Counted from the first letter of the stretch, positions 11,815 through 21,359 are shown. The stretch: DNA of 64,000 nucleotides from Verrucomicrobiota bacterium (GCA_039796295.1 JBDKJY010000037.1:2199-66198); one strand, 5' to 3'. The notes: generated by a model from the letters alone, not told the origin. Numbers and translations: made by a program.

Positions 11815-12173
11815 AGCGCGGAGGCTAGCGGGCGGAGCGGAGGGAACCAAGCTGTAACGTGGCGCGCGGGTGTGTCGCCGACCAGCCGCAGCCTTCCCGC
11901 CCTCCCGCAATCATCGCTCAACGCAGACTAGCCAGAGGTGAGCACCTGCTGCGACTGGTGCCGCGCGCACAGTCGGCCTCGGTTCCGTTTGCTGTTCGGG
12001 GGCAAGGCTGGCGCTGCGGCCACGGAACCGTGCGTGGCAGGAAACGCTTTGCTTCGGCCACCTCGTTATACAGAATCCGCCACCCGATGAACGACGCCTC
12101 TCCCACCCTCGCTGCCACGCTAGGCGGGGGGGGCTGAACCGCAGCGGCTTCCTCTTTGCCCACCGCCCCACCC

Positions 12174-13214
12174 ATGAGCCACGTCAGCGACTACTTCCAA
12201 ACCCTCGGCCAGACAATGGCCAGCCAGCTCGGCGACCACCCCGAGCCGGACAGTGTCTTCGCGGCCATCGCCACCGATGTGTTAAGCGCGGTGCCTGCGC
12301 CCCCGATTGACGTTCTGGCGATGGCGGACTGGGCCGGGCAACAAGATCCGCTCCCCAAGCAGGTCAACTTCAAGTCTGGCTTCGGTCAGCCGCCGCTGGT
12401 GGTCTTCGTGGCCCCCGGCTTCTACATCGAGGTGCTCTTCTGGTTCCCCAGCCGCACCGGCATCCACGGGCACGGGTTCACGGGCGCGTTCCGGGTGCTG
12501 AACGGTTGCTCGGTCCAGGTCGAATACCGGTTCCTCGAGGAGTCCGCCCCGGAGGAGGGACTGCGGCTCGGTAAGCTGGTCGCGCAGGGGATCGAGATGG
12601 TCGCGCCGGGCAAGGTGTGTTCCATCCTGGGCCGGGATGACTTCATCCACTGCGTCGCGCATCTGGGCAACCCCTCCCTCACGCTGGTGGCCCGCACCTA
12701 CGGCAGCAAGGACCTGCGGCAATTCTCCTTCCATCGGTGCGGCTTTGCCCTCCGGGCGAAATACCAGCAGCAGACCATGGAACGGCAGGCGGCGGTGCTG
12801 GCGGCGGTGTTCAAGGCCCGCCCGGCGGCCTTCAGAGAACGGCTCCTGGCCTATCTCGCCGCCACCGACTGCGCCGCCTGCTATGCCGTCCTGAGTGAAC
12901 TCAAGTCCCTCCTCGCCTTTCCCGTGTTCACCAAGCAGGTGCTGCCCGCCGTCCGGGAGCGCTTCGGGGCCACCCACGCGCCCGCACTGGCGGCCCTCGA
13001 CGAGGACGTTCGCTCCAACGGCATCTGGGGCCTGATCGGTAAGCTCAACGATCCCCGGCAGCAGCTCCAGCACGCCCTCACCGAGCTATTCCCCGACGAG
13101 CGGGAACGCGATGCCCTCATCTGCCAATCCCTCGGCGTGGCGGATGCCCAGCCGGTGTTAGCGGAATGGTTGCGGATCGCCGAACAGTCCTCTGCTCCGC
13201 CGGCCACTGGTTGA
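12174..13214 (+). CDS. hypothetical protein, cupin-like N-terminal half
   Basis: ORF 12156..13214 (TTG); ATG at 12174. GIHGHGFTGAFRVLNGCSVQVEY resembles a metal-binding double-stranded beta-helix motif. The C-terminal half is helical. Convergent with the cyclase gene. Confidence 0.6.
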   Translation: MSHVSDYFQTLGQTMASQLGDHPEPDSVFAAIATDVLSAVPAPPIDVLAMADWAGQQDPLPKQVNFKSGFGQPPLVVFVAPGFYIEVLFWFPSRTGIHGHGFTGAFRVLNGCSVQVEYRFLEESAPEEGLRLGKLVAQGIEMVAPGKVCSILGRDDFIHCVAHLGNPSLTLVARTYGSKDLRQFSFHRCGFALRAKYQQQTMERQAAVLAAVFKARPAAFRERLLAYLAATDCAACYAVLSELKSLLAFPVFTKQVLPAVRERFGATHAPALAALDEDVRSNGIWGLIGKLNDPRQQLQHALTELFPDERERDALICQSLGVADAQPVLAEWLRIAEQSSAPPATG

Positions 13215-13243: not shown

Positions 13244-15181
13244 CTAGCCTTCCACAGCCTGCTTCCCCGCGCGCCCCTGCTCCTGCTGCCAGAGCGTCAA
13301 CGCGGCCAGTGCGTGGCGCACGGTGAGGGTGGGCGGGTGCTTCAGGGCTTCGCGCAGACGGACCGTGTCCACCCACGGGTTGGGCTGGCACAGGCGCTCA
13401 TGCACCGCCGCCAAGGGCTTCGCCTCCTGCCGCTCCTTCTGCCGCTCCGCCAGCGCCGGGTCCTGCTTCACCGAATCCCACGGGACGGCTGGGGGGAAGA
13501 GCTTGCTCGTCGCATGCCGATACAGCACCCGACCCTGACCCGGCTGGTAATGCAGCTCCGGCGGCACGCCATACACGAACTCCAGCACCCGCCGGTCGGT
13601 CAGCGGGTAGGCATACGTCAGCCCGTGTTCCGCTCCGAAGGCCGCCCACGACTCCATCCGCGCCGTGACATGGCCGTGGTAATAGAGCGCCGCCTGGCAT
13701 CTCCGGCTCCCCGGCACCTCCCGCACGTGCGGCACGTCCGTGCGCAGGTGCGGGCGGATGCGCTCGGCGAACTCCACTCGGATAAACGGCTCGCCCCGCT
13801 TACTGCGCGCCTGCCGATACGCCAGCCGCTCCCACAGCGCGGCCGGCAACGTGGGCAGCACCGCACTATCCCAGAACGCCCGCAGCGCCACCAACGCCAG
13901 CCCCGGGCGACGCCACGCGCGCCCCAGCCCCAGATACCCCGCCAGCGCCCCCCACTCTCCGCGCACCAGATAATCCGCCGCCAACCCCCGCCCATTGTAG
14001 CTCACCCCTTCATCCCCGCCCCAACCCGACAGCATCAGCCCGACCCCTTGCGCCGCCGCGCGCACTTGCACCGACCGCTCCAGCCCCATCGTCAGCGCCG
14101 GCCGCAGGGAGATGTCCAGCTCCGCCATCCAGCGCTCATCGTCATCGGTGGCCTCCGTGTAGAGCGGCGTCAACCCCTCCTGCTGGCAGATGGCCACAAT
14201 GCGCCGGTGCTCCGTCTCCTCTGGCTTGGACCCCGGCGGTGGGGACCAGGAGAACATCGTGGGCACCGCCGCCCCGCGCTGCCGCTGGAGCCGCGCCGCC
14301 AGCACCGCCACCGACGATGAATCCAGCCCCCCGCTGAGGTGAGCCCCCACCGGCAGCCGCGTCCGCAAGCAATCCCCTACCGCCCGCTCCACCAGCGCGT
14401 AAAGCTGCTCCACATAGTCGGCGTGCCGCGCCAGCCGCACATCCGGCAGCCGCTCGGGGAACCAATACCGCGCCACCCGCAACCCCCGGTCATCCACCGT
14501 CAGCGTGTGGCCGAATGGCAGCTTGCGCACGCCCCGGTAGTAGGTGCGGACATTGTCATGCGCCCCCGGAGACAGGTTCAACAGCAGCCACCCCACCTCC
14601 ACCTCATCCAGCTCCCGCCGCACCCCGGGGATGGCGAGCAAGGCCGGCAAGTCCGTGGCGAAGGCGAACTCCCGCTCCGTGTGCCAGTAGAACAGTGGGC
14701 GTGCTCCGATGTGATCCCGCGCGAGGAACAGCCGCCGCGCCCCCGCATCCCAGACGGCGAAGGCGTAATCCCCCACCAGATGCTCCGTGCAGCCCTCCCC
14801 CCACCGCTCCCACGCCCGCAGCAACAGCGCCTCATCCGACACCATCGCGCGTTCCGCCGACGGCACGTCCAGCGCGGCGCACAGCTCCGGCCGTCCATCC
14901 AGCCGCGCATCCGCCACGACGGTCAAGGGTCCACGGGTGAGGATGGCAGTTTCCGGTAGGGCCGCGCTGTGCGCGGTCTTGTCTTCCTCCGGCCGTCCAC
15001 AGGACGGCCCTACCGCCTCCGGCGTGAAGTGCTGCACCTGGCAGCCGAGGGCGATGGGACCGCTGCTCCACAGGCCACGCGCATCCCGGCCATACTGCTC
15101 CATCAGGGACAGGGCAGGGGAGAGGGCCGCTGGGGAGACCGGCGCACCGTCCAGCCGGAACAGCCCGGCAATGGCACTCAT
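13244..15181 (-). CDS. asparagine synthetase-like lasso peptide cyclase (C protein) candidate
   Basis: 645-aa ORF. ATP-PPase motif HLSGGLDSS is present, but the N-terminus MSAIAG lacks the Cys2 glutaminase nucleophile. Compare the true AsnB at 33962..35878, which starts MCAITG. The start overlaps the PqqD stop (ATGA, 15178-15181). Confidence 0.8.
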   Translation of the reverse strand: MSAIAGLFRLDGAPVSPAALSPALSLMEQYGRDARGLWSSGPIALGCQVQHFTPEAVGPSCGRPEEDKTAHSAALPETAILTRGPLTVVADARLDGRPELCAALDVPSAERAMVSDEALLLRAWERWGEGCTEHLVGDYAFAVWDAGARRLFLARDHIGARPLFYWHTEREFAFATDLPALLAIPGVRRELDEVEVGWLLLNLSPGAHDNVRTYYRGVRKLPFGHTLTVDDRGLRVARYWFPERLPDVRLARHADYVEQLYALVERAVGDCLRTRLPVGAHLSGGLDSSSVAVLAARLQRQRGAAVPTMFSWSPPPGSKPEETEHRRIVAICQQEGLTPLYTEATDDDERWMAELDISLRPALTMGLERSVQVRAAAQGVGLMLSGWGGDEGVSYNGRGLAADYLVRGEWGALAGYLGLGRAWRRPGLALVALRAFWDSAVLPTLPAALWERLAYRQARSKRGEPFIRVEFAERIRPHLRTDVPHVREVPGSRRCQAALYYHGHVTARMESWAAFGAEHGLTYAYPLTDRRVLEFVYGVPPELHYQPGQGRVLYRHATSKLFPPAVPWDSVKQDPALAERQKERQEAKPLAAVHERLCQPNPWVDTVRLREALKHPPTLTVRHALAALTLWQQEQGRAGKQAVEG

Positions 15182-15465
15182 GCCGTCACCGTCTGGATGT
15201 GCAGCAGCTTGTCCGTGTGAAGCTGGGTGAGGAAGGCCAGCACCTCCCGCTCACACACCGCCGGGTCCACCTCGAACTCCGACTGGAGCTGGGTGACCAG
15301 CTCGCTCACCCGACACGGCTGTTCCACCGCCGCCCACACCCGAGTGGCCATGCGGTTCATCTGGTAGTATTCCCCATTCTCGATGCTCAGGAGCACGGCC
15401 TGCTCATCCAGCGTGCCGGAGATCAGCTCAGGGGCACGGACCACGGTGGAGGTAGAGAATATCAT
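15178..15465 (-). CDS. PqqD family RiPP recognition element (lasso B1/E-type chaperone)
   Basis: ORF 15178..15600; start moved to ATG 15465, giving 95 aa. Typical PqqD pattern: GTLDEQAVLLSIENGEYYQMNRMATRVWAAVEQPCRVSELVTQL. Translationally coupled to the cyclase. Confidence 0.85.
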   Translation of the reverse strand: MIFSTSTVVRAPELISGTLDEQAVLLSIENGEYYQMNRMATRVWAAVEQPCRVSELVTQLQSEFEVDPAVCEREVLAFLTQLHTDKLLHIQTVTA

Positions 15466-15553: not shown

Positions 15554-15640
15554 GGAGTCCCGGCTTCAGCCGGTGGAGCCGTCCGGTTCACCTGTGCCAC
15601 GCGTGCGCGCTGCCGGCTAAAGCCGGGACTCCAAACGGGG
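15554..15640. repeat. 87-nt structured element, copy 1 (20-bp inverted arms GGAGTCCCGGCTTCAGCCGG / CCGGCTAAAGCCGGGACTCC)
   Basis: Near-identical copy at 17684..17770. The arms are complementary apart from one mismatch. Lies between the precursor A1 stop and the PqqD start. Confidence 0.8.
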
Positions 15641-15698
15641 GGCGGGCTGCGGACGCGGGGACCGCAGTCCGGGGGGGCGAACGCGGGCTGCGGTAGTG

Positions 15699-15854
15699 CT
15701 AGGAAGGGGGGGCCGCAGTGCTACGAGAGGTCTCCCTAGTAAAGGAATTTTTTTCCGTCCCCTCGGCAAGGTCGAGGGGCAGTAGCAGCGGCGTCTCCCA
15801 AGGGAGCTTGGCGGCGGGGGCTGGCGGGGCGGGGGATGCTGATTCGGTTTGCAT
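15699..15854 (-). CDS. lasso-type precursor peptide paralog A1 (51 aa, below the ORF-track cutoff)
   Basis: Hand translation of the minus strand: MQTESASPAPPAPAAKLPWETPLLLPLDLAEGTEKNSFTRETSRSTAAPPS, stop TAG. The leader is shared with three paralogs. Lies immediately upstream of the PqqD and cyclase genes. Confidence 0.7.
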   Translation of the reverse strand: MQTESASPAPPAPAAKLPWETPLLLPLDLAEGTEKNSFTRETSRSTAAPPS

Positions 15855-15863
15855 GGCGGCGGG

Positions 15864-15894
15864 AGAGTAGTGGGGGGGGGCGGAGGGCTGTCAA
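15864..15894 (-). promoter_or_regulatory. sigma70-like promoter candidate for A1 (TTGACA-19 nt-TACTCT, 9 nt to ATG)
   Basis: Minus strand has TTGACA (15894..15889) and TACTCT (15869..15864). The spacer contains a G9/C9 run. The module is conserved upstream of all four precursor ORFs. Confidence 0.45.
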
Positions 15895-16102
15895 CGGGAG
15901 AGGGTGGCCCAAGCGCACCGGAGCGCGGGTAGGGCGCGGTGTCCTCCCCGCGCCGCCGAATGGGGAGTGGCATCCGGTTGGCCCACGGCAAGGGGAGGCC
16001 ACCCCGCCCTACCTGCTCCCGGCTGCGGCCAGGCGCAGCTCAGTATTTTGCACGGCCAGGTGGGGATGGTGAATTCGTTGCTCACAAAACGTCGCGCGTC
16101 TT

Positions 16103-16245
16103 CACCCTCACCCCGGCCCTCTCCCTCCAAGGGAGAGGGAGAGCGCTTTACGCCGGCTCGTGCTTCCGAGCACGCCCTTTCGCCGCAGCGCGGCCTGCGT
16201 GGCTCCCTCTCCCAGCGGGAGAGGGCTGGGGTGAGGGAGAACGGC
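16103..16245. repeat. inverted pair of 'GEGRGEG-type' elements (CTCACCCCGGCCCTCTCCC..GGGAGAGGG)
   Basis: 16103-16145 and 16204-16245 are reverse complements of each other and flank about 60 bp. The same family occurs at 19261-19390, 28207-28333, 37623-37668, 46321-46362, 49150-49190 and 49296-49338. Confidence 0.8.
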
Positions 16246-16380
16246 TCCGAGTGCAGAACCGGGTTGCAGGAAAGTAATATGCGCCCCTGCGGCCCATCCC
16301 TTCATTAAGGCGTTGACAAACCAACCCCGTTTCGATAGAGAAAAACCGTCCACACAATCTGAACCGAACCAATCCAAGCT

Positions 16381-17073
16381 ATGCCCTTCAAATACATCCA
16401 AGTTCCGAACACCAAAGACCCGAACAAATCCTCCACCCGCGCCGCCCTGGGCGACCCCGTAAGCGAAGCCGAGTTCTTCGCCTACATGGCCATCCTCCTC
16501 AGCAAACCGCCTGCCGATTGCGAAGCGGCCTTCAATGCGTTGCTGGATACCTGTGTCCACTTCGCCCGGGATACCCGCGCCACCAGCTACCTGCATGGCC
16601 GCCTGCGTATGCAACCCTCCAGCGGCGGCAGCTTCGAGACCGGCACCACCCCGCACTCCCCCAAGGACATCGGCGCGCGTATGAACCTCAGCCTCGGACC
16701 TGATACCGTCGCCGCCTTCGAGGACGACCTGAGCATCGAGAAGGTGGGCGAGGAAGGGGTGCGCGCCCCGCAGATTGACCGCGTGATAGACAACCGCACC
16801 GGGGACACCGATAAATACACGGCCTCCGATGTGCTGGAGGTGGACGGGGAGCACTTCGAGATCGACCCGACGGACACCGCGCAAGGGGTCTTCCTCACCC
16901 CGGTGGCGAGCGGTTCGGCTGTGCGCATCACCCGTTACCTGAGCGTCACGCCTACCCGCATCGAAGTGCTGCTGCCGGCCGGCCTCACCGGCCAGCAACG
17001 CCTCATGGTGGTGTGCAAGTATGACACCAGCCCCCTGCGCTCCAGCACTTACACCAGCGCCCTCAGCCCGTAG
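16381..17073 (+). CDS. HU-like DNA-binding N-terminal domain plus DUF4469-like Ig-fold C-terminal domain protein
   Basis: 230-aa ORF. The C-terminal pattern IDRVIDNRTGDTDKYTASDVLEVDGEHFEIDPTDTAQGVFL...RIEVLLPAGLTGQQRLMVV resembles Bacteroidetes HU/DUF4469 proteins. On the opposite strand to the surrounding RiPP genes. Confidence 0.5.
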   Translation: MPFKYIQVPNTKDPNKSSTRAALGDPVSEAEFFAYMAILLSKPPADCEAAFNALLDTCVHFARDTRATSYLHGRLRMQPSSGGSFETGTTPHSPKDIGARMNLSLGPDTVAAFEDDLSIEKVGEEGVRAPQIDRVIDNRTGDTDKYTASDVLEVDGEHFEIDPTDTAQGVFLTPVASGSAVRITRYLSVTPTRIEVLLPAGLTGQQRLMVVCKYDTSPLRSSTYTSALSP

Positions 17074-17259
17074 GGTCACCCTCCGCCGGTCTGACCCCCA
17101 CCCTCCGCACCACCGAGGGTCACCCTCGCGACGCCGTAGGGTCACCCTCCGACGAGCTGAGGGTCACCCTCCATGAGTCTGAGGGTCACCCTCGTTACGA
17201 CTGAGGGTCACCCTCGTGACGGCTGAGGGTCACCCTCCGCGCGGCTGAGGATGACCCTT
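17071..17259. repeat. tandem array: 9 units at an exact 22-bp period of the 13-bp palindrome GAGGGTCACCCTC
   Basis: Units start at 17071, 17093, 17115, 17137, 17159, 17181, 17203, 17225 and 17247. Five are perfect GAGGGTCACCCTC, two are TAGGGTCACCCTC, and two are degenerate. Spacers are variable 7-mers followed by CT. Confidence 0.95.
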
Positions 17260-17423
17260 GGGGCAGCGCAGGGCTACGTTTGGAATGCACGTGGGGTGCG
17301 GGGCCATCGCCGCACCGCCTTGGTCTGGTGGAATTCAAGTGGCAGACGGCGGGGTGAGGACACCCGCGCTACTGGGAGGTCATTAGGCGAAGGGCCTAGC
17401 CGCCGGTAGGGCAGCGCTTGCGT

Positions 17424-17582
17424 CTATGAGGCCGGGCCTGAGCTTCTGGTAAGTTGTTCAACGGCAGTGATTACAGTCTTCTGGGTCTCATCGGCGAGGT
17501 CGAGGGGGAGGAGGAGCGGGGTCTCCCAGGGGAGCTTGGCGGCGGGGGCTTGCGGGGCGGGGGAGGCAGGTGCGGTCTGCAT
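17424..17582 (-). CDS. lasso-type precursor peptide paralog A2 (52 aa)
   Basis: Hand translation: MQTAPASPAPQAPAAKLPWETPLLLPLDLADETQKTVITAVEQLTRSSGPAS, stop TAG. Confidence 0.7.
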   Translation of the reverse strand: MQTAPASPAPQAPAAKLPWETPLLLPLDLADETQKTVITAVEQLTRSSGPAS

Positions 17583-17591
17583 GGCGGCGGG

Positions 17592-17619
17592 AGGGTAGCT
17601 GGGGTTGGCGAGCTGTCAA
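17592..17619 (-). promoter_or_regulatory. sigma70-like promoter candidate for A2 (TTGACA-16 nt-TACCCT, 9 nt to ATG)
   Basis: Minus strand has TTGACA (17619..17614) and TACCCT (17597..17592). Same module as the other three copies, but with no poly-G run in the spacer. Confidence 0.45.
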
Positions 17620-17683
17620 CGGAGGAGGCAGGCCCAAGCGGTGCGGAGCGCAGACGCCTCCATCCGCAGGCGGGTTGTGGCTG

Positions 17684-17770
17684 GGAGTCCCGGCTTCAGC
17701 CGGTGGAGCCGTCCGATTCACCTATGCCACTCGTGCGCGCTACCGGCTAAAGCCGGGACTCCAAACGGGG
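17684..17770. repeat. 87-nt structured element, copy 2
   Basis: More than 90 percent identical by eye to 15554..15640. Lies between the precursor A3 stop and the A2 promoter module. Confidence 0.8.
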
Positions 17771-17938
17771 CGACGGCGGGTTGCGTTCTCCCTCACCGCC
17801 TACCGACTCAGATGCTGGGGGACTGCGTCCCGCAGGGGCTCCGATGGGGGGAGTCGTAACCTAGGCAAGTCCGACCGTTGCTACGGGTCGCAGACCGGCG
17901 CTGCAAGCGCAGCGTTCAGTGCACCGGCGGCGGGCGGC

Positions 17939-18097
17939 CTACGAGACGGGGCCAAAGGCGGTTCCGATTTCGGTGCTTTGAGGGACGGGCCCGGAATTTG
18001 TCCCGGCGGGGACATCCAGGGGTGTGCAGAGCGGGGTCTCCCACGGGAGCTTGGCGGCGGGGGCTGTCGGGGCGGGGGAGGCAGGTGCGGTTTGCAT
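17939..18097 (-). CDS. lasso-type precursor peptide paralog A3 (52 aa)
   Basis: Hand translation: MQTAPASPAPTAPAAKLPWETPLCTPLDVPAGTNSGPVPQSTEIGTAFGPVS, stop TAG. Confidence 0.7.
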   Translation of the reverse strand: MQTAPASPAPTAPAAKLPWETPLCTPLDVPAGTNSGPVPQSTEIGTAFGPVS

Positions 18098-18106
18098 GGC
18101 GGCGGG

Positions 18107-18134
18107 AGAGTAGCTGGGGGGGGCGGGCTGTCAA
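18107..18134 (-). promoter_or_regulatory. sigma70-like promoter candidate for A3 (TTGACA-16 nt-TACTCT, 9 nt to ATG)
   Basis: TTGACA (18134..18129) overlaps the oxygenase stop codon (18131-18133). The spacer holds a G8/C8 run. Confidence 0.45.
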
Positions 18135-18787
18135 TTGATCGGAGCGCGGGCGTGGGGAGGGCGCTGCGGCTTGACCTTGTCCGCCTTGAGGTGGGCATAG
18201 GGGCCGTCCGCCCGGACGTAGTGCAGGAAGGTCTGGATCATCTCGGTGCCGGTGAAGGGCTCACGCCAATGGGGGCGCTCGATGCCCTGGTAGACCAAAC
18301 CATCCCCCGCCGCGAGGTGGGCGGGCACGGCTTCCCCGGTAGGCGTCTCCACATACAAAGGCCAAGGCACCTGCGGATCGGGCTGGAGGGCGAGGGAGAG
18401 GCTGATTTCGCAGGCGGGGCGGTCCGTGTGCCGGGCCAGCACGGCCCCCGGCTCGTAGATGCGCATGAAGGAGTAGGTAGGCAGGAGCCGGTGGCCGGTG
18501 AGCTGCTCAACCTGCGGGAGCAACCGTAGGAGGAGGTCCTCCGTGACGAGGTTCTTGTAGGCGACGGTGGCCGCTGTCACCGCTCCTTCGCCCCGGCGCA
18601 GGAGGTTGTGGGCCTTCATGGTCTTCAAGTCGGCGGCGGCCTTGGCGCAGACGGCGGCGGGCAGCAAGCCACGGGCGATGAGATAGCCGTGGGTGGCGAA
18701 GGCGTGGGCGGTGTCCACCGGAGCGGGAGGGGATGAAGGGGGACTGCTGGTGGGGGTCTGAGGTGCGCGGGGGGGTGGCGGTGGCAT
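18131..18787 (-). CDS. Fe(II)/2-oxoglutarate-dependent oxygenase
   Basis: ORF 18131..19195; start moved to ATG 18787 (MPPPPPRAPQ..), because the upstream part reads through precursor A4 and repeats. The HxD...H triad is visible: ARHTDRP and ERPHWREP. Confidence 0.75.
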   Translation of the reverse strand: MPPPPPRAPQTPTSSPPSSPPAPVDTAHAFATHGYLIARGLLPAAVCAKAAADLKTMKAHNLLRRGEGAVTAATVAYKNLVTEDLLLRLLPQVEQLTGHRLLPTYSFMRIYEPGAVLARHTDRPACEISLSLALQPDPQVPWPLYVETPTGEAVPAHLAAGDGLVYQGIERPHWREPFTGTEMIQTFLHYVRADGPYAHLKADKVKPQRPPHARAPIN

Positions 18788-18891
18788 CGGGCTCACGATG
18801 CAGCGGACTTTCCGCGTGGGAAGGACTAGCGTCAACCGGGAATCCGGACCCCAGACCCGCAGGCTGAAGGGGCGGACACGACCTGCTTGGA

Positions 18892-19047
18892 CTACGAGGC
18901 GGGGCCGGAGCGGGGACCGGATTCCCTGTAGAAGGTAAATGTTTTGTTTGTCTCTTCGGCGGCATCGAGGGTCTGGCAGACGGGCGTCTCCCAAGGGAGC
19001 TTGGCGGCAGGGGCTGGCGGGGCAGGGGAGGCAGGTGCGGTTTGCAT
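18892..19047 (-). CDS. lasso-type precursor peptide paralog A4 (51 aa)
   Basis: Hand translation: MQTAPASPAPPAPAAKLPWETPVCQTLDAAEETNKTFTFYRESGPRSGPAS, stop TAG. Confidence 0.7.
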   Translation of the reverse strand: MQTAPASPAPPAPAAKLPWETPVCQTLDAAEETNKTFTFYRESGPRSGPAS

Positions 19048-19056
19048 GACGGCGGG

Positions 19057-19084
19057 AGAGTAGCTGGGGGGGGCGGGCTGTCAA
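19057..19084 (-). promoter_or_regulatory. sigma70-like promoter candidate for A4 (TTGACA-16 nt-TACTCT, 9 nt to ATG)
   Basis: TTGACA (19084..19079) and TACTCT (19062..19057). G8/C8 run in the spacer. Confidence 0.45.
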
Positions 19085-19260: not shown

Positions 19261-19390
19261 GGATTCTCTCCCAGCGGGAGAGGGACAGGGTGAGGGAGAA
19301 CGGCTAGGAGTCGTAGCGGGGAGGGATGTCTCCAGACCTCGCTGCCATTCTCCCTCACCCCAGCCCTCTCCCGCTGGGAGAGGGAGGCAG
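19261..19390. repeat. MITE-like unit bounded by an inverted pair of GEGRGEG-type elements
   Basis: 19264-19305 and 19346-19385 are reverse complements of each other (about 40-bp terminal inverted repeats). Confidence 0.75.
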
Positions 19391-19442
19391 GCAGGCCGCT
19401 TCAGTGTTAGCGAGGCGCTGGGGACACCTGGCCTTGCGTAGC

Positions 19443-20305
19443 TCAGTGCACCGGTTGGCCGGTGGCATCCAGGTAGCCATACTGGCGCATGACGTCGGCG
19501 TGGTCGGCGATGACGCGGGCGGCTTGCTCGGGGGTGAGGGCGTCGCGCCAGGAGCCGATGCTGCCCCGGCGGAAGAAGGCCTTGGCCTTGGGGAGGCGCT
19601 CCCGGAAGCCGCCGGCTTGCTCCTGCCGCTGGAGTTCCTCAAAGCGGCTGAACTCGATGGCCTTGCGGATGCGCTCGGGGTCGTCGGGCAGGCCGAGGAA
19701 GCGCACGGCGGTGGTGAAGGTGGCTTCGGGGGTGAGCTTCATGTCCTCGTAGCGGATGACTTGCACGCGGAGGCCGGGGGCGGTGGCCCAACTGGTGACG
19801 TGGCGGCTCCAGGAGAGGAGGCGCTGGCGGAGCTGGTTCGGCTCGGTGGCATCGCTGACGGCCACGCAGGCGTCGGGCTTGCCCAGCAGCTTGACGGAGC
19901 GCTCGTAGTCGGTGCTGCCGCCATGAGCGGCGTAGGAGACGGCGACGTCCAGGGGGTTACGGATAAAGTAGAGGGCGGCCTCGGTGGCCTCGGGGGGCAG
20001 GAGGGGGCGGCCGTCGGGCAGGAAGGTGTAGGCGTCGTGGCACTTGCAGTAGAGGGTCTCCTTGGCCTGGCGGGCGAGGTGGAGATAGACCTCGGGGCGG
20101 AGGGCGTCGGCCTCGTCGGGGGTCAGCTCGCCGGAGTCGTAGCCGACGGCGTTGTCGAAGGGGGCGCGGGCGCTGGAGATGGGGCCGCCGTCGAGGGCAT
20201 TGATGTCGGCGGGCTGGGGGCATCCCGGAGGAAGTTGGTGAGGAAGGTGCGGAACCAAGTGTTACCGGACTTGGGGTAGGAGGCGAGCCAGACGATGCGC
20301 TTCAT
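19443..20305 (-). pseudogene. sulfotransferase, split by a 1-nt frameshift (pseudogene or homopolymer sequencing error)
   Basis: The PAPS 5'-PSB motif MKRIVWLASYPKSGNTWFRTF (ATG 20305) is in one frame. The rest, including the 3'-PB-like IRNPLDVAVSY, is ORF 19443..20258 in another frame. Reading the G5 run at 20216-20220 as G6 gives a continuous ..FLRDAPQPADINALDGGPI.. Confidence 0.8.
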
Positions 20306-20318
20306 GGCGGGCGATGGC

Positions 20319-21256
20319 TCAGGGGCGGAAGTCGGCTTCGAGGCGGTCCACCAGCTCGGTGAGGCGGAAGGCGCCCTCGGGCCGGGTGACGCGGGTGACG
20401 GTGGCCTGCTGGGCGAGGGCCAGGGCGGCGCGGAAGTGGGCGGGCTTGGCGGCGAGGCCATCCACGAAGTGGAAGCGGTAGGTCTGCTGCTTGAGGGCGT
20501 TGAGGCGCTGGGGGCCTTCGACGGAGGTGAGCTGGAGGTCGGGGTCGTTAGTGGCGCGGAGGAGGTAGAGCTTGCGCACCGGGAGGGGGACGGTGGCGAA
20601 GGCGGTGCCCAGGGGGACGGCGCGCTTCTCCAGCGCGGGCCGGATGCGCTGGAGGCCATCGGGTGCGAGGTCGAATTGCTTGAGGGAGTCCAGCCAGAGC
20701 TTGGCATGGGGGAGGCCGGGGTGGAGGACGAGGCGGCCGGTGGCATCCGGGCGGATGGCACAGACGTCGTCGGTGAGGACGGGGTAGCCGCGGCGCTGGC
20801 AGGCGATGGCGGTGGTGGACTTGCCGACACCGGAGATGCCGAGGAAGGCAACGCAGGTATCACCCGTGGCGATGGCGCTGCCGTGGAGGACGAGGTCACC
20901 GCGTTGGTGGAGGAGGGCGGCGAAGGCGGAGCCGTAGAGGAAGAGGCGGACGTCCTCGGGGTCCGCACCGGGCGGGGACTCGATGACGATGCGCCGGCCG
21001 TCCGCGATGAGGAAGCGGGCGATGCCGTCCACGATGAGGAGGAGCTGGCCGGGGGCGGCTTGATAGCGGACGCCACGGTCGGTGGCTCCGGGGAGTTCGG
21101 TGGGGACAGGGCCGGTGAGGATCTCGACGTCGGCGGGGCCATCGGTGGAGGCGGGGGAAGCTCGGGGAGGGGCAGGGTGGAGTGGATGCGCAGGCCGTAG
21201 GCTTGGTGCTGGGGCGGTGGGGGCGGTGGGTTGTCTGTAGTTTCTGGGTCGGCCAT
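20319..21256 (-). pseudogene. HPr kinase-like (HprK-related) peptide kinase, split by a 1-nt frameshift (pseudogene or sequencing error)
   Basis: The N-terminus MADPETTDN..QAYGLRIHSTLPLPELP (ATG 21256) is in one frame. The body, with the P-loop FLGISGVGKSTTA, is in the frame of ORF 20319..21365. Reading the G5 run at 21153-21157 as G6 gives ..LPELPPASTDGPADVEILTG.. Confidence 0.65.
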
Positions 21257-21359
21257 GCGGAGCTACCGTTAGCATGAGGCGGAGGGTGATGTCGAGGGAG
21301 GGGGAGGGCGGGTGAGGATTGGCTGGCCTTGGCGAGGGTGGATTCCCCATGCTGAGGGG

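Follow-up and report, generated by a model that had tools for sequence, protein, structure and literature searches.

Candidate lasso peptide precursors with predicted Lys1 cores in a Verrucomicrobiota gene cluster encoding an HprK-like kinase

Results

Four precursors share a leader and differ in their cores

A 64,000-nt stretch of a Verrucomicrobiota bacterium genome (GCA_039796295.1, JBDKJY010000037.1:2199-66198), here called the window and numbered from its first nucleotide, carries four short open reading frames (ORFs), A1 to A4, which we consider likely to be functional precursors of class-II-type lasso peptides. The pathway would include an HprK-like kinase and a sulfotransferase, and the host would be an Opitutaceae-related member of the phylum. 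In three of the four precursors the predicted core begins with Lys, a residue that would be unusual at the ring-closing position.

The four ORFs, all on the minus strand and 51-52 aa long (Table 1), come from an ORF listing and alignment, and agree in coordinates and translation with a first-pass annotation of the window. Their first 34 residues are near-identical (MQTAPASPAP.APAAKLPWETP...T33-x34), with a WETPL motif in which W19-x-x-P22-x-L24 is invariant, as is Thr33. The predicted cores, defined as the residues that follow a cut after T33-x34, comprise the last 17-18 residues, which are unrelated except for one Glu and a C-terminal P-x-S. The same division is seen in the DNA, where mean pairwise identity among the four copies is 87% in the 37-40 nt before the ATG, 80% in the leader, 39% in the core and 39-45% in the flanks. 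Such a conserved leader followed by a hypervariable core reads as the usual signature of a precursor to a ribosomally made, post-translationally modified peptide (RiPP). A fifth precursor-like ORF was sought in the 64-kb window, and none was found.

The Glu is the sole acidic residue of each of the four cores and lies at position 7, 8, 9 and 8 in A1 to A4; these positions, the core lengths and the terminal Ser had all been claimed in the first-pass annotation, and we reproduced them in every core. When the cores are shuffled, an acidic residue falls at position 7-9 at a rate of only about 0.17-0.2 per core (p ~9e-4 for four of four), so the placement of the Glu is not attributable to chance. 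The tail of every core has an Arg or Phe (Arg is present in three of the four), which makes these residues candidate plugs.

A profile search with the four precursors gave only two database matches, and the wider family was recovered by way of cyclase homologues, a leader-motif scan of metagenomes, and contigs carrying kinase homologues. It comprises 22 homologous precursors on 12 contigs: four in the window; eight in L002, from a sister metagenome-assembled genome (MAG); one each in L001, L019, L005, L004/L021 and L022; and five on the metagenome contigs L012-L017. Outside this set stand L023, with no recognisable precursor, and L024, whose sole candidate is without a Thr-x site.

Cleavage register and the predicted first residue

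The register proposed by the first-pass annotation, a cut after Thr33-x34, is supported by the family. A Thr lies exactly 11 residues past the Pro of the WxxP motif in all 22 precursors, and all 22 end in Ser, as do the distant precursors of L006 and L018. With the cut placed after Thr-x, 21 of the 22 have an Asp or Glu at core position 7-9, Glu every time. The residue two after the invariant Thr is Gly, Ala or Ser in half of the family (11/22), and the position aligned with the Lys1 of the window is a canonical Gly1, Ala1 or Ser1 in relatives from L002, L012-L017 and L022, with core starts such as GGATAS... and GKSPVG... for Gly, and AKFTTV..., AKPIVN... and AKAFNP... for Ala. Because these relatives anchor the Thr-x cut, Lys1 is the best reading for A1, A2 and A4, and by homology the cut after T33-x34 appears to be the best-supported cleavage site. 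Elsewhere Lys1 occurs in L001, L019 and three of the L002 copies, and is restricted to the immediate lineage of the window; the L001 orthologue of A1 (KNPYAIES...) retains Lys1-Asn2 and Glu7. In form, the Lys1 cores look like Ala-Lys or Gly-Lys cores minus their first residue.

Other registers were tried and rejected: cutting right after the Thr, cutting one position further on and fixing the ring size at 7 or 9 all place rings outside 7-9 for several relatives, and A3 would even have to begin with Pro. The spacing from motif to Thr in the window is one residue shorter than in the actinobacterial pattern YxxPxLx3Gx5Tx.

First residues of characterised lasso peptides are more varied than the Gly, Ala, Ser or Cys to which the first-pass annotation had confined them, a list that is now outdated: fusilassin begins with Trp, metanodin (2025) with Asn, and palassoptides A1 and A2 (2026) with Phe and Glu (PMC13632552). 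The oddity it had seen in Lys1 stands to the extent that this start is unusual, having been reported only as the engineered PalA2 E1K variant, detected by mass spectrometry; it breaks no rule, however, since the cyclase PalC makes all E1X variants except Pro, Lys included, and every residue but Pro was seen at position 1 in a large-scale analysis (reported in PMC13632552).

Cyclase, B1 and the order of the cluster

The cluster genes all lie on the minus strand, in the order kinase, sulfotransferase, A4, oxygenase, A3, A2, A1, B1 and C, with an opposite-strand DUF4469 gene and repeats standing between A2 and A1. The C protein, a lasso macrolactam cyclase, matches NCBIfam NF033535 (lasso peptide isopeptide bond-forming cyclase) with E 1.3e-94 and 318 bits, under the curated cutoff of 525. 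Its start overlaps the stop of B1, and its relatives at 77%, 63% and 55% identity adjoin homologous precursors. B1, a PqqD-type RiPP recognition element (RRE), matches Pfam PqqD (E 1.5e-18) and comes close to the cutoff for NCBIfam NF033536 (lasso_PqqD_Bac; 77.7 bits, cutoff 80); it is 81% identical to the product of the L002 gene.

Cluster proteins are 77-94% identical between the window and L002, a level that would be consistent with selection. The nearest named relatives of the cyclase and the kinase are from Opitutaceae and Opitutus MAGs. We note that the record CAZOCL010000003.1, from which L003 (= L002) comes, is labelled 'uncultured Klebsiella sp.'; given the similarity of its cluster proteins to those of this Verrucomicrobiota window, whose G+C content is 65-70%, the label is almost certainly wrong.

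A functional pathway weighed against its alternatives

Several observations weigh against a functional lasso pathway at this locus: (i) No B2 peptidase turned up in the 64 kb of the window or the 20 kb of L002 with phmmer, tblastn or a three-sequence hidden Markov model; phmmer and the model, which was built from L004, L006 and L018, were run on all six-frame ORFs of both, and no match had an E value below 0.4. (ii) Queries from L004 found no homologue of the ATP-binding cassette (ABC) exporter (D) or the nucleoside triphosphate (NTP)-transferase (N) in the same 64 kb and 20 kb. (iii) Compared with L002 and L019, the sulfotransferase gene has a 1-nt deletion near 20218/20219 (within 20210-20225), in a run of C just past the loop that binds 3'-phosphoadenosine-5'-phosphosulfate (PAPS), which shifts the reading frame between the PAPS-binding N-terminus (MKRIVWLASYPKSGNTW...) and the remainder. 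(iv) In L005 the Thr-x rule puts the sole Glu at position 10. (v) Several relatives have nothing bulky in their tails, so that a stably threaded product is not guaranteed. (vi) No characterised natural Lys1 lasso peptide was found in the literature searched, a provisional result in that several key papers lay outside the search.

The first three points would fit a decaying remnant, in which the precursors are still readable and no longer matured, the peptidase and exporter missing and the sulfotransferase broken; the opposite-strand DUF4469 gene, the 22-nt tandem array and the REP-like (repetitive extragenic palindromic) elements inserted between precursors could be taken in the same sense. 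We nevertheless think decay unlikely. The genes for A1 to A4, B1, C, the kinase and the oxygenase are all intact. Conservation extends over the promoter-like elements and the leaders, and although the cores diverge, all of them retain the lone Glu and the C-terminal P-x-S. The layout without B2 is also that of the sister MAG, at the protein identity given above. Split layouts exist in the family, since L004 and L021 (Opitutaceae) hold B2, the NTP-transferase and the ABC exporter 6-8 kb from the cyclase and on the other strand; the Azospirillum soli cluster has the compact order D-B1-B2-K-C. It is plausible that B2 is encoded elsewhere in the genome, and pseudomycoidin was produced without B1/B2, which proved dispensable in heterologous hosts (PMC6993621). 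The 1-nt deletion in the sulfotransferase gene falls within a C homopolymer: an assembly error is one possible origin, a genuine pseudogene the other.

In the Opitutaceae relatives, other genes, all absent from the window, stand between the cyclase/precursor and the B2/NTP-transferase/exporter groups (L004 12367-13646, L021 15337-16616, L022 16376-18053): a tandem set of two or three genes with a phage tail collar domain (Pfam Collar), a gene for a GNAT acetyltransferase and another sulfotransferase-like gene.

A different alternative leaves the pathway in place and moves the cut, which would fall immediately before the conserved Lys in all members that contain one, making Lys1 the general start with rings of 7-8 throughout. 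This would bring L005 into line, its Glu10 becoming Lys1...Glu7, and it would account for the Lys that 16 of the 22 precursors have as core residue 1 or 2, at a distance from the Glu that is always 6-7 residues with or without a preceding small residue. However, four precursors, A3 of the window among them, have no ring Lys; L002-6 would be left with a 6-residue ring; and a Thr at -3 to -5 conflicts with the established requirement of B2 peptidases for Thr(-2) (PMC10368454). We judge a cut before Lys very unlikely, and for the three Lys cores of the window it would give the same product as the Thr-x rule. Highly improbable, finally, is use of the Lys1 epsilon-amine instead of or besides the alpha-amine, giving a larger lactam or a second cross-link: Lys1 does offer both amines, and class V lasso peptides form a second macrocycle through the side chain of ring Lys2 (PMC13178200), but lasso cyclases act on the alpha-amine, the Ala-Lys and Gly-Lys relatives fit that canonical reaction, the same cyclase has to process Ser1 of A3, and a Pfam search of the cluster genes one by one showed no clostripain-like transpeptidase (a bulk scan of the other 31 window proteins showed the 25 commonest families).

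For the preferred reading, a functional pathway with cleavage after Thr-x, we infer cleavage, an alpha-amine lactam, threading and all tailoring reactions as follows. Each precursor would be transcribed from its own promoter-like element directly before the ATG. The PqqD protein B1 would bind the W-E-T-P-L leader motif, and a B2 cysteine peptidase from outside the 64-kb window would cut after Thr(-2)-x(-1). The single cyclase would then adenylate the lone Glu (Glu 7/8/9/8) and couple its side chain to the alpha-amine of the first residue, which is Ser in A3 and Lys in the other three, yielding a 7-, 8- or 9-membered lactam, and ring closure would trap a tail of 9-10 residues. The kinase would phosphorylate the invariant terminal Ser of the linear precursor; in genomes with an intact sulfotransferase gene this Ser may also be a handle for that enzyme, and the oxygenase may hydroxylate the near-invariant Pro (-3) of the C-terminal (G/A)-P-x-S.

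Kinase, sulfotransferase and other candidate tailoring genes

The kinase matches Pfam Hpr_kinase_C (PF07475) at E 1.9e-4, below the cutoff, and its matches to NCBIfam HprK_rel_A and HprK_rel_B are weak. Its homologues number at least 370 with E<=0.001; of the 120 listed, most carry precomputed PF07475 and PF27840 (ScmC) assignments. An AlphaFold2 model (pLDDT 89) matches PEPCK and the HprK/P structures 1ko7/1kkl with E 4e-8 to 1e-6, at TM scores of only 0.3-0.5, and the protein is 33% identical to the kinase of the A. soli cluster. It is established for paeninodin and relatives that HprK-like kinases act on the linear lasso precursor, in which the C-terminal Ser is the sole residue phosphorylated (PMC8498205). 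The earlier suggestion that the terminal Ser fits such a kinase agrees with this published specificity, with the kinase gene in the cluster and with the Ser found throughout the family, and we would expect the terminal Ser to be phosphorylated here too. Sulfotransferase genes in clusters of this kind have been noted since 2014, their role uncharacterised (PMC8498205, PMC4289311).

Searches of Pfam, NCBIfam and PDB sequences gave no match for the oxygenase. Its residues H120, D122, H173 and R175 are invariant in 54 homologues (H-x-D...H...R), and the top Foldseek matches of its AlphaFold2 model (pLDDT 93) are the Pseudomonas putida prolyl 4-hydroxylase (P4H) 4iw3/4j25 (E 4e-11) and PHD2. A candidate substrate is the Pro conserved across the family in the C-terminal (G/A)-P-x-S.

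Two plus-strand genes flank the cluster. A protein resembling protein arginine methyltransferases (PRMTs) is divergent from the kinase; phmmer against PDB finds the eukaryotic PRMT7/PRMT9 (E 6e-24), and Pfam finds PrmA. The gene is also near the cluster in L001, L002 and L019, a recurrence that may be synteny only, and to tie it to the lasso pathway would be speculative. On the other side, a 352-aa protein flanks the cyclase; it has no match in Pfam, NCBIfam or PDB sequences, even at E 10. It has an HGHG motif that by eye resembles those of cupins. The idea that it is a homologue of a JmjC-like neighbour in L024 was rejected, as the two are not homologous.

Table 1. Features of the lasso peptide gene cluster and its flanks, by window position
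Feature	Coordinates	Strand	Description
352-aa protein	12156..13214	+	Flanks cyclase; 80% identical at the same place in L002; pathway membership uncertain
C, lasso macrolactam cyclase (asparagine-synthetase-like)	13244..15181	-	Pfam Asn_synthase and GATase_7; NCBIfam NF033535
B1, PqqD-type RRE	15178..15465	-	ORF reaches 15600; probable start Met46 (95 aa, the same length as in the sister MAG)
Precursor A1	15699..15854	-	Leader M1-E34; predicted core KNSFTRETSRSTAAPPS, 17 aa, Lys1, Glu7, C-terminal Ser
Promoter-like element before A1	15855..15894	-	TTGACA, 19-nt spacer, TACTCT; ends 9 nt before ATG
Precursor A2	17424..17582	-	Predicted core KTVITAVEQLTRSSGPAS, 18 aa, Lys1, Glu8, C-terminal Ser
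Promoter-like element before A2	17583-17619	-	TTGACA, 16-nt spacer, TAC(T/C)CT
Precursor A3	17939..18097	-	Predicted core SGPVPQSTEIGTAFGPVS, 18 aa, Ser1, Glu9, C-terminal Ser
Promoter-like element before A3	18098-18134	-	TTGACA, 16-nt spacer, TAC(T/C)CT
Fe(II)/2-oxoglutarate dioxygenase, prolyl-4-hydroxylase-like fold	18131..18787	-	Between A4 and A3; 88% identical in L002
Precursor A4	18892..19047	-	Predicted core KTFTFYRESGPRSGPAS, 17 aa, Lys1, Glu8, C-terminal Ser
Promoter-like element before A4	19048-19084	-	TTGACA, 16-nt spacer, TAC(T/C)CT
Sulfotransferase	19443..20305	-	PAPS-binding PKSGNTW loop; Pfam Sulfotransfer_1 E 1.3e-18; 94% identical to L002
HprK/PEPCK-fold P-loop kinase	20319..21275	-	P-loop GISGVGKST; presumed kinase for C-terminal Ser
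PRMT-like methyltransferase, 391 aa	21312..22487	+	Divergent from kinase; pathway membership uncertain

Promoter-like elements and repeats

Upstream similarity of the four precursor copies begins exactly at TTGACA, identity falling from 87% to 45% further upstream. The conserved element (Table 1) stops 9 nt short of the ATG in all four copies. It is missed by a consensus promoter scan, its -10 hexamer agreeing at only three of six positions, and no Shine-Dalgarno sequence was found upstream of A1-A4. We take the element, from its conservation, to be a probable promoter, and its position suggests a separate promoter for every precursor and transcripts that are leaderless or nearly so. The sister MAG L002 has the same upstream type plus a second one.

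Repeats are found at several places among the cluster genes. A tandem array (17072-17258), located in the interval that separates the DUF4469 gene's end from A2's 3' end, consists of 8.5 copies of a 22-nt unit, made up of the near-palindromic conserved AGGGTCACCCTC and about 10 variable bases; this 12-mer has 13 matches in the window, all within the array, against 0.4 expected. There are two kinds of REP-like inverted repeat, CCGGCTAAAGCCGG hairpins and CTCTCCCAGCGGGAGAGGG... elements, at 15602-15653 and 17663-17777, and at 16190-16252 and 19266-19400. The REP-like elements flank the segment with the DUF4469 gene (16381-17073, opposite strand), which related loci lack; the gene and the repeats are probably an insertion.

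Discussion

Comparison with known lasso systems

The closest known type is that of paeninodin and pseudomycoidin (Firmicutes, Proteobacteria), with which the window shares an HprK-like kinase gene, a Ser at the end of the core, B1 split from B2, and co-occurrence of a sulfotransferase; the relative L004 also has an NTP-transferase like PsmN. The window differs in several respects: (i) The host belongs to Verrucomicrobiota, the acceptor is always Glu, and the predicted ring starts with Lys1. (ii) There are four precursors, each with a promoter-like element, and one cyclase for ring sizes 7, 8 and 9. (iii) A prolyl-hydroxylase-fold oxygenase is encoded within the precursor array, and 64 kb contain no B2 or D. 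(iv) The kinase, with its weak similarity to Pfam Hpr_kinase_C, is nearer the ScmC family PF27840.

Fusilassin, metanodin and the palassoptides have in common with the predicted peptides a Thr at -2, an Asp/Glu acceptor at 7-9 and a residue 1 that is not small, although their clusters, unlike the window, are without kinase or sulfotransferase tailoring. As with PalC, one cyclase would serve unlike first residues, here Lys and Ser, and in L002 Glu, Ala, Gly, Ser and Lys. Many relatives of the window precursors share with class V (lariocidin B, gelatinamin A) a small residue followed by Lys2 (Ala-Lys/Ser-Lys). In class V the Lys is functionally used, and a clostripain-like transpeptidase and an Asp8 ring are needed; in the window, by contrast, the Lys is at position 1 rather than 2, and the last core residue is Ser, not one that transpeptidation takes off.

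We find the first-pass interpretation mostly right, and the novelty narrower than it had claimed. The kinase-associated lasso family is known as a type, and a characterised member of the family described here was not found in the literature searched; neither were Verrucomicrobiota lasso peptides or sulfated lasso peptides, an absence that is not proof. New here are the predicted Lys1, the Verrucomicrobiota lineage, the set of kinase, sulfotransferase and P4H-like oxygenase, the multi-precursor array, and one cyclase for three predicted ring sizes.

Implications for the lasso family

Bulky C-terminal modifications have been proposed to help hold the tail of pseudomycoidin threaded (PMC6993621). 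The ring Lys (at position 1 or 2, always 6-7 residues ahead of the acceptor Glu) and the invariant C-terminal (G/A)-P-x-Ser could conceivably be functional handles, a phospho- or sulfo-Ser installed by the kinase or sulfotransferase acting as a steric lock for tails that have no bulky plug, or non-class-V enzymes making a second linkage at the Lys. We put this forward as an improbable speculation; if true, either the Ser-group lock or the second Lys linkage would be a new way to lock a lasso.

Position 1 of a lasso peptide supplies the ring-closing amine and has been treated as restrictive, and the new first residues characterised in 2025 (Asn1) and 2026 (Phe1 and Glu1) were each presented as an advance. 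A natural lasso peptide with Lys1 would bear a free epsilon-amine on its ring, a handle for conjugation or further tailoring. A cyclase serving rings of 7, 8 and 9 from Lys and Ser starts, and from Glu, Ala and Gly too in the sister MAG, would be unusually permissive and attractive for engineering. The family is large, judging by the number of kinase homologues, the few named ones of which are from Opitutaceae or Opitutus MAGs, and alongside the known Ser kinase it has a sulfotransferase, an enzyme noted in lasso clusters since 2014.

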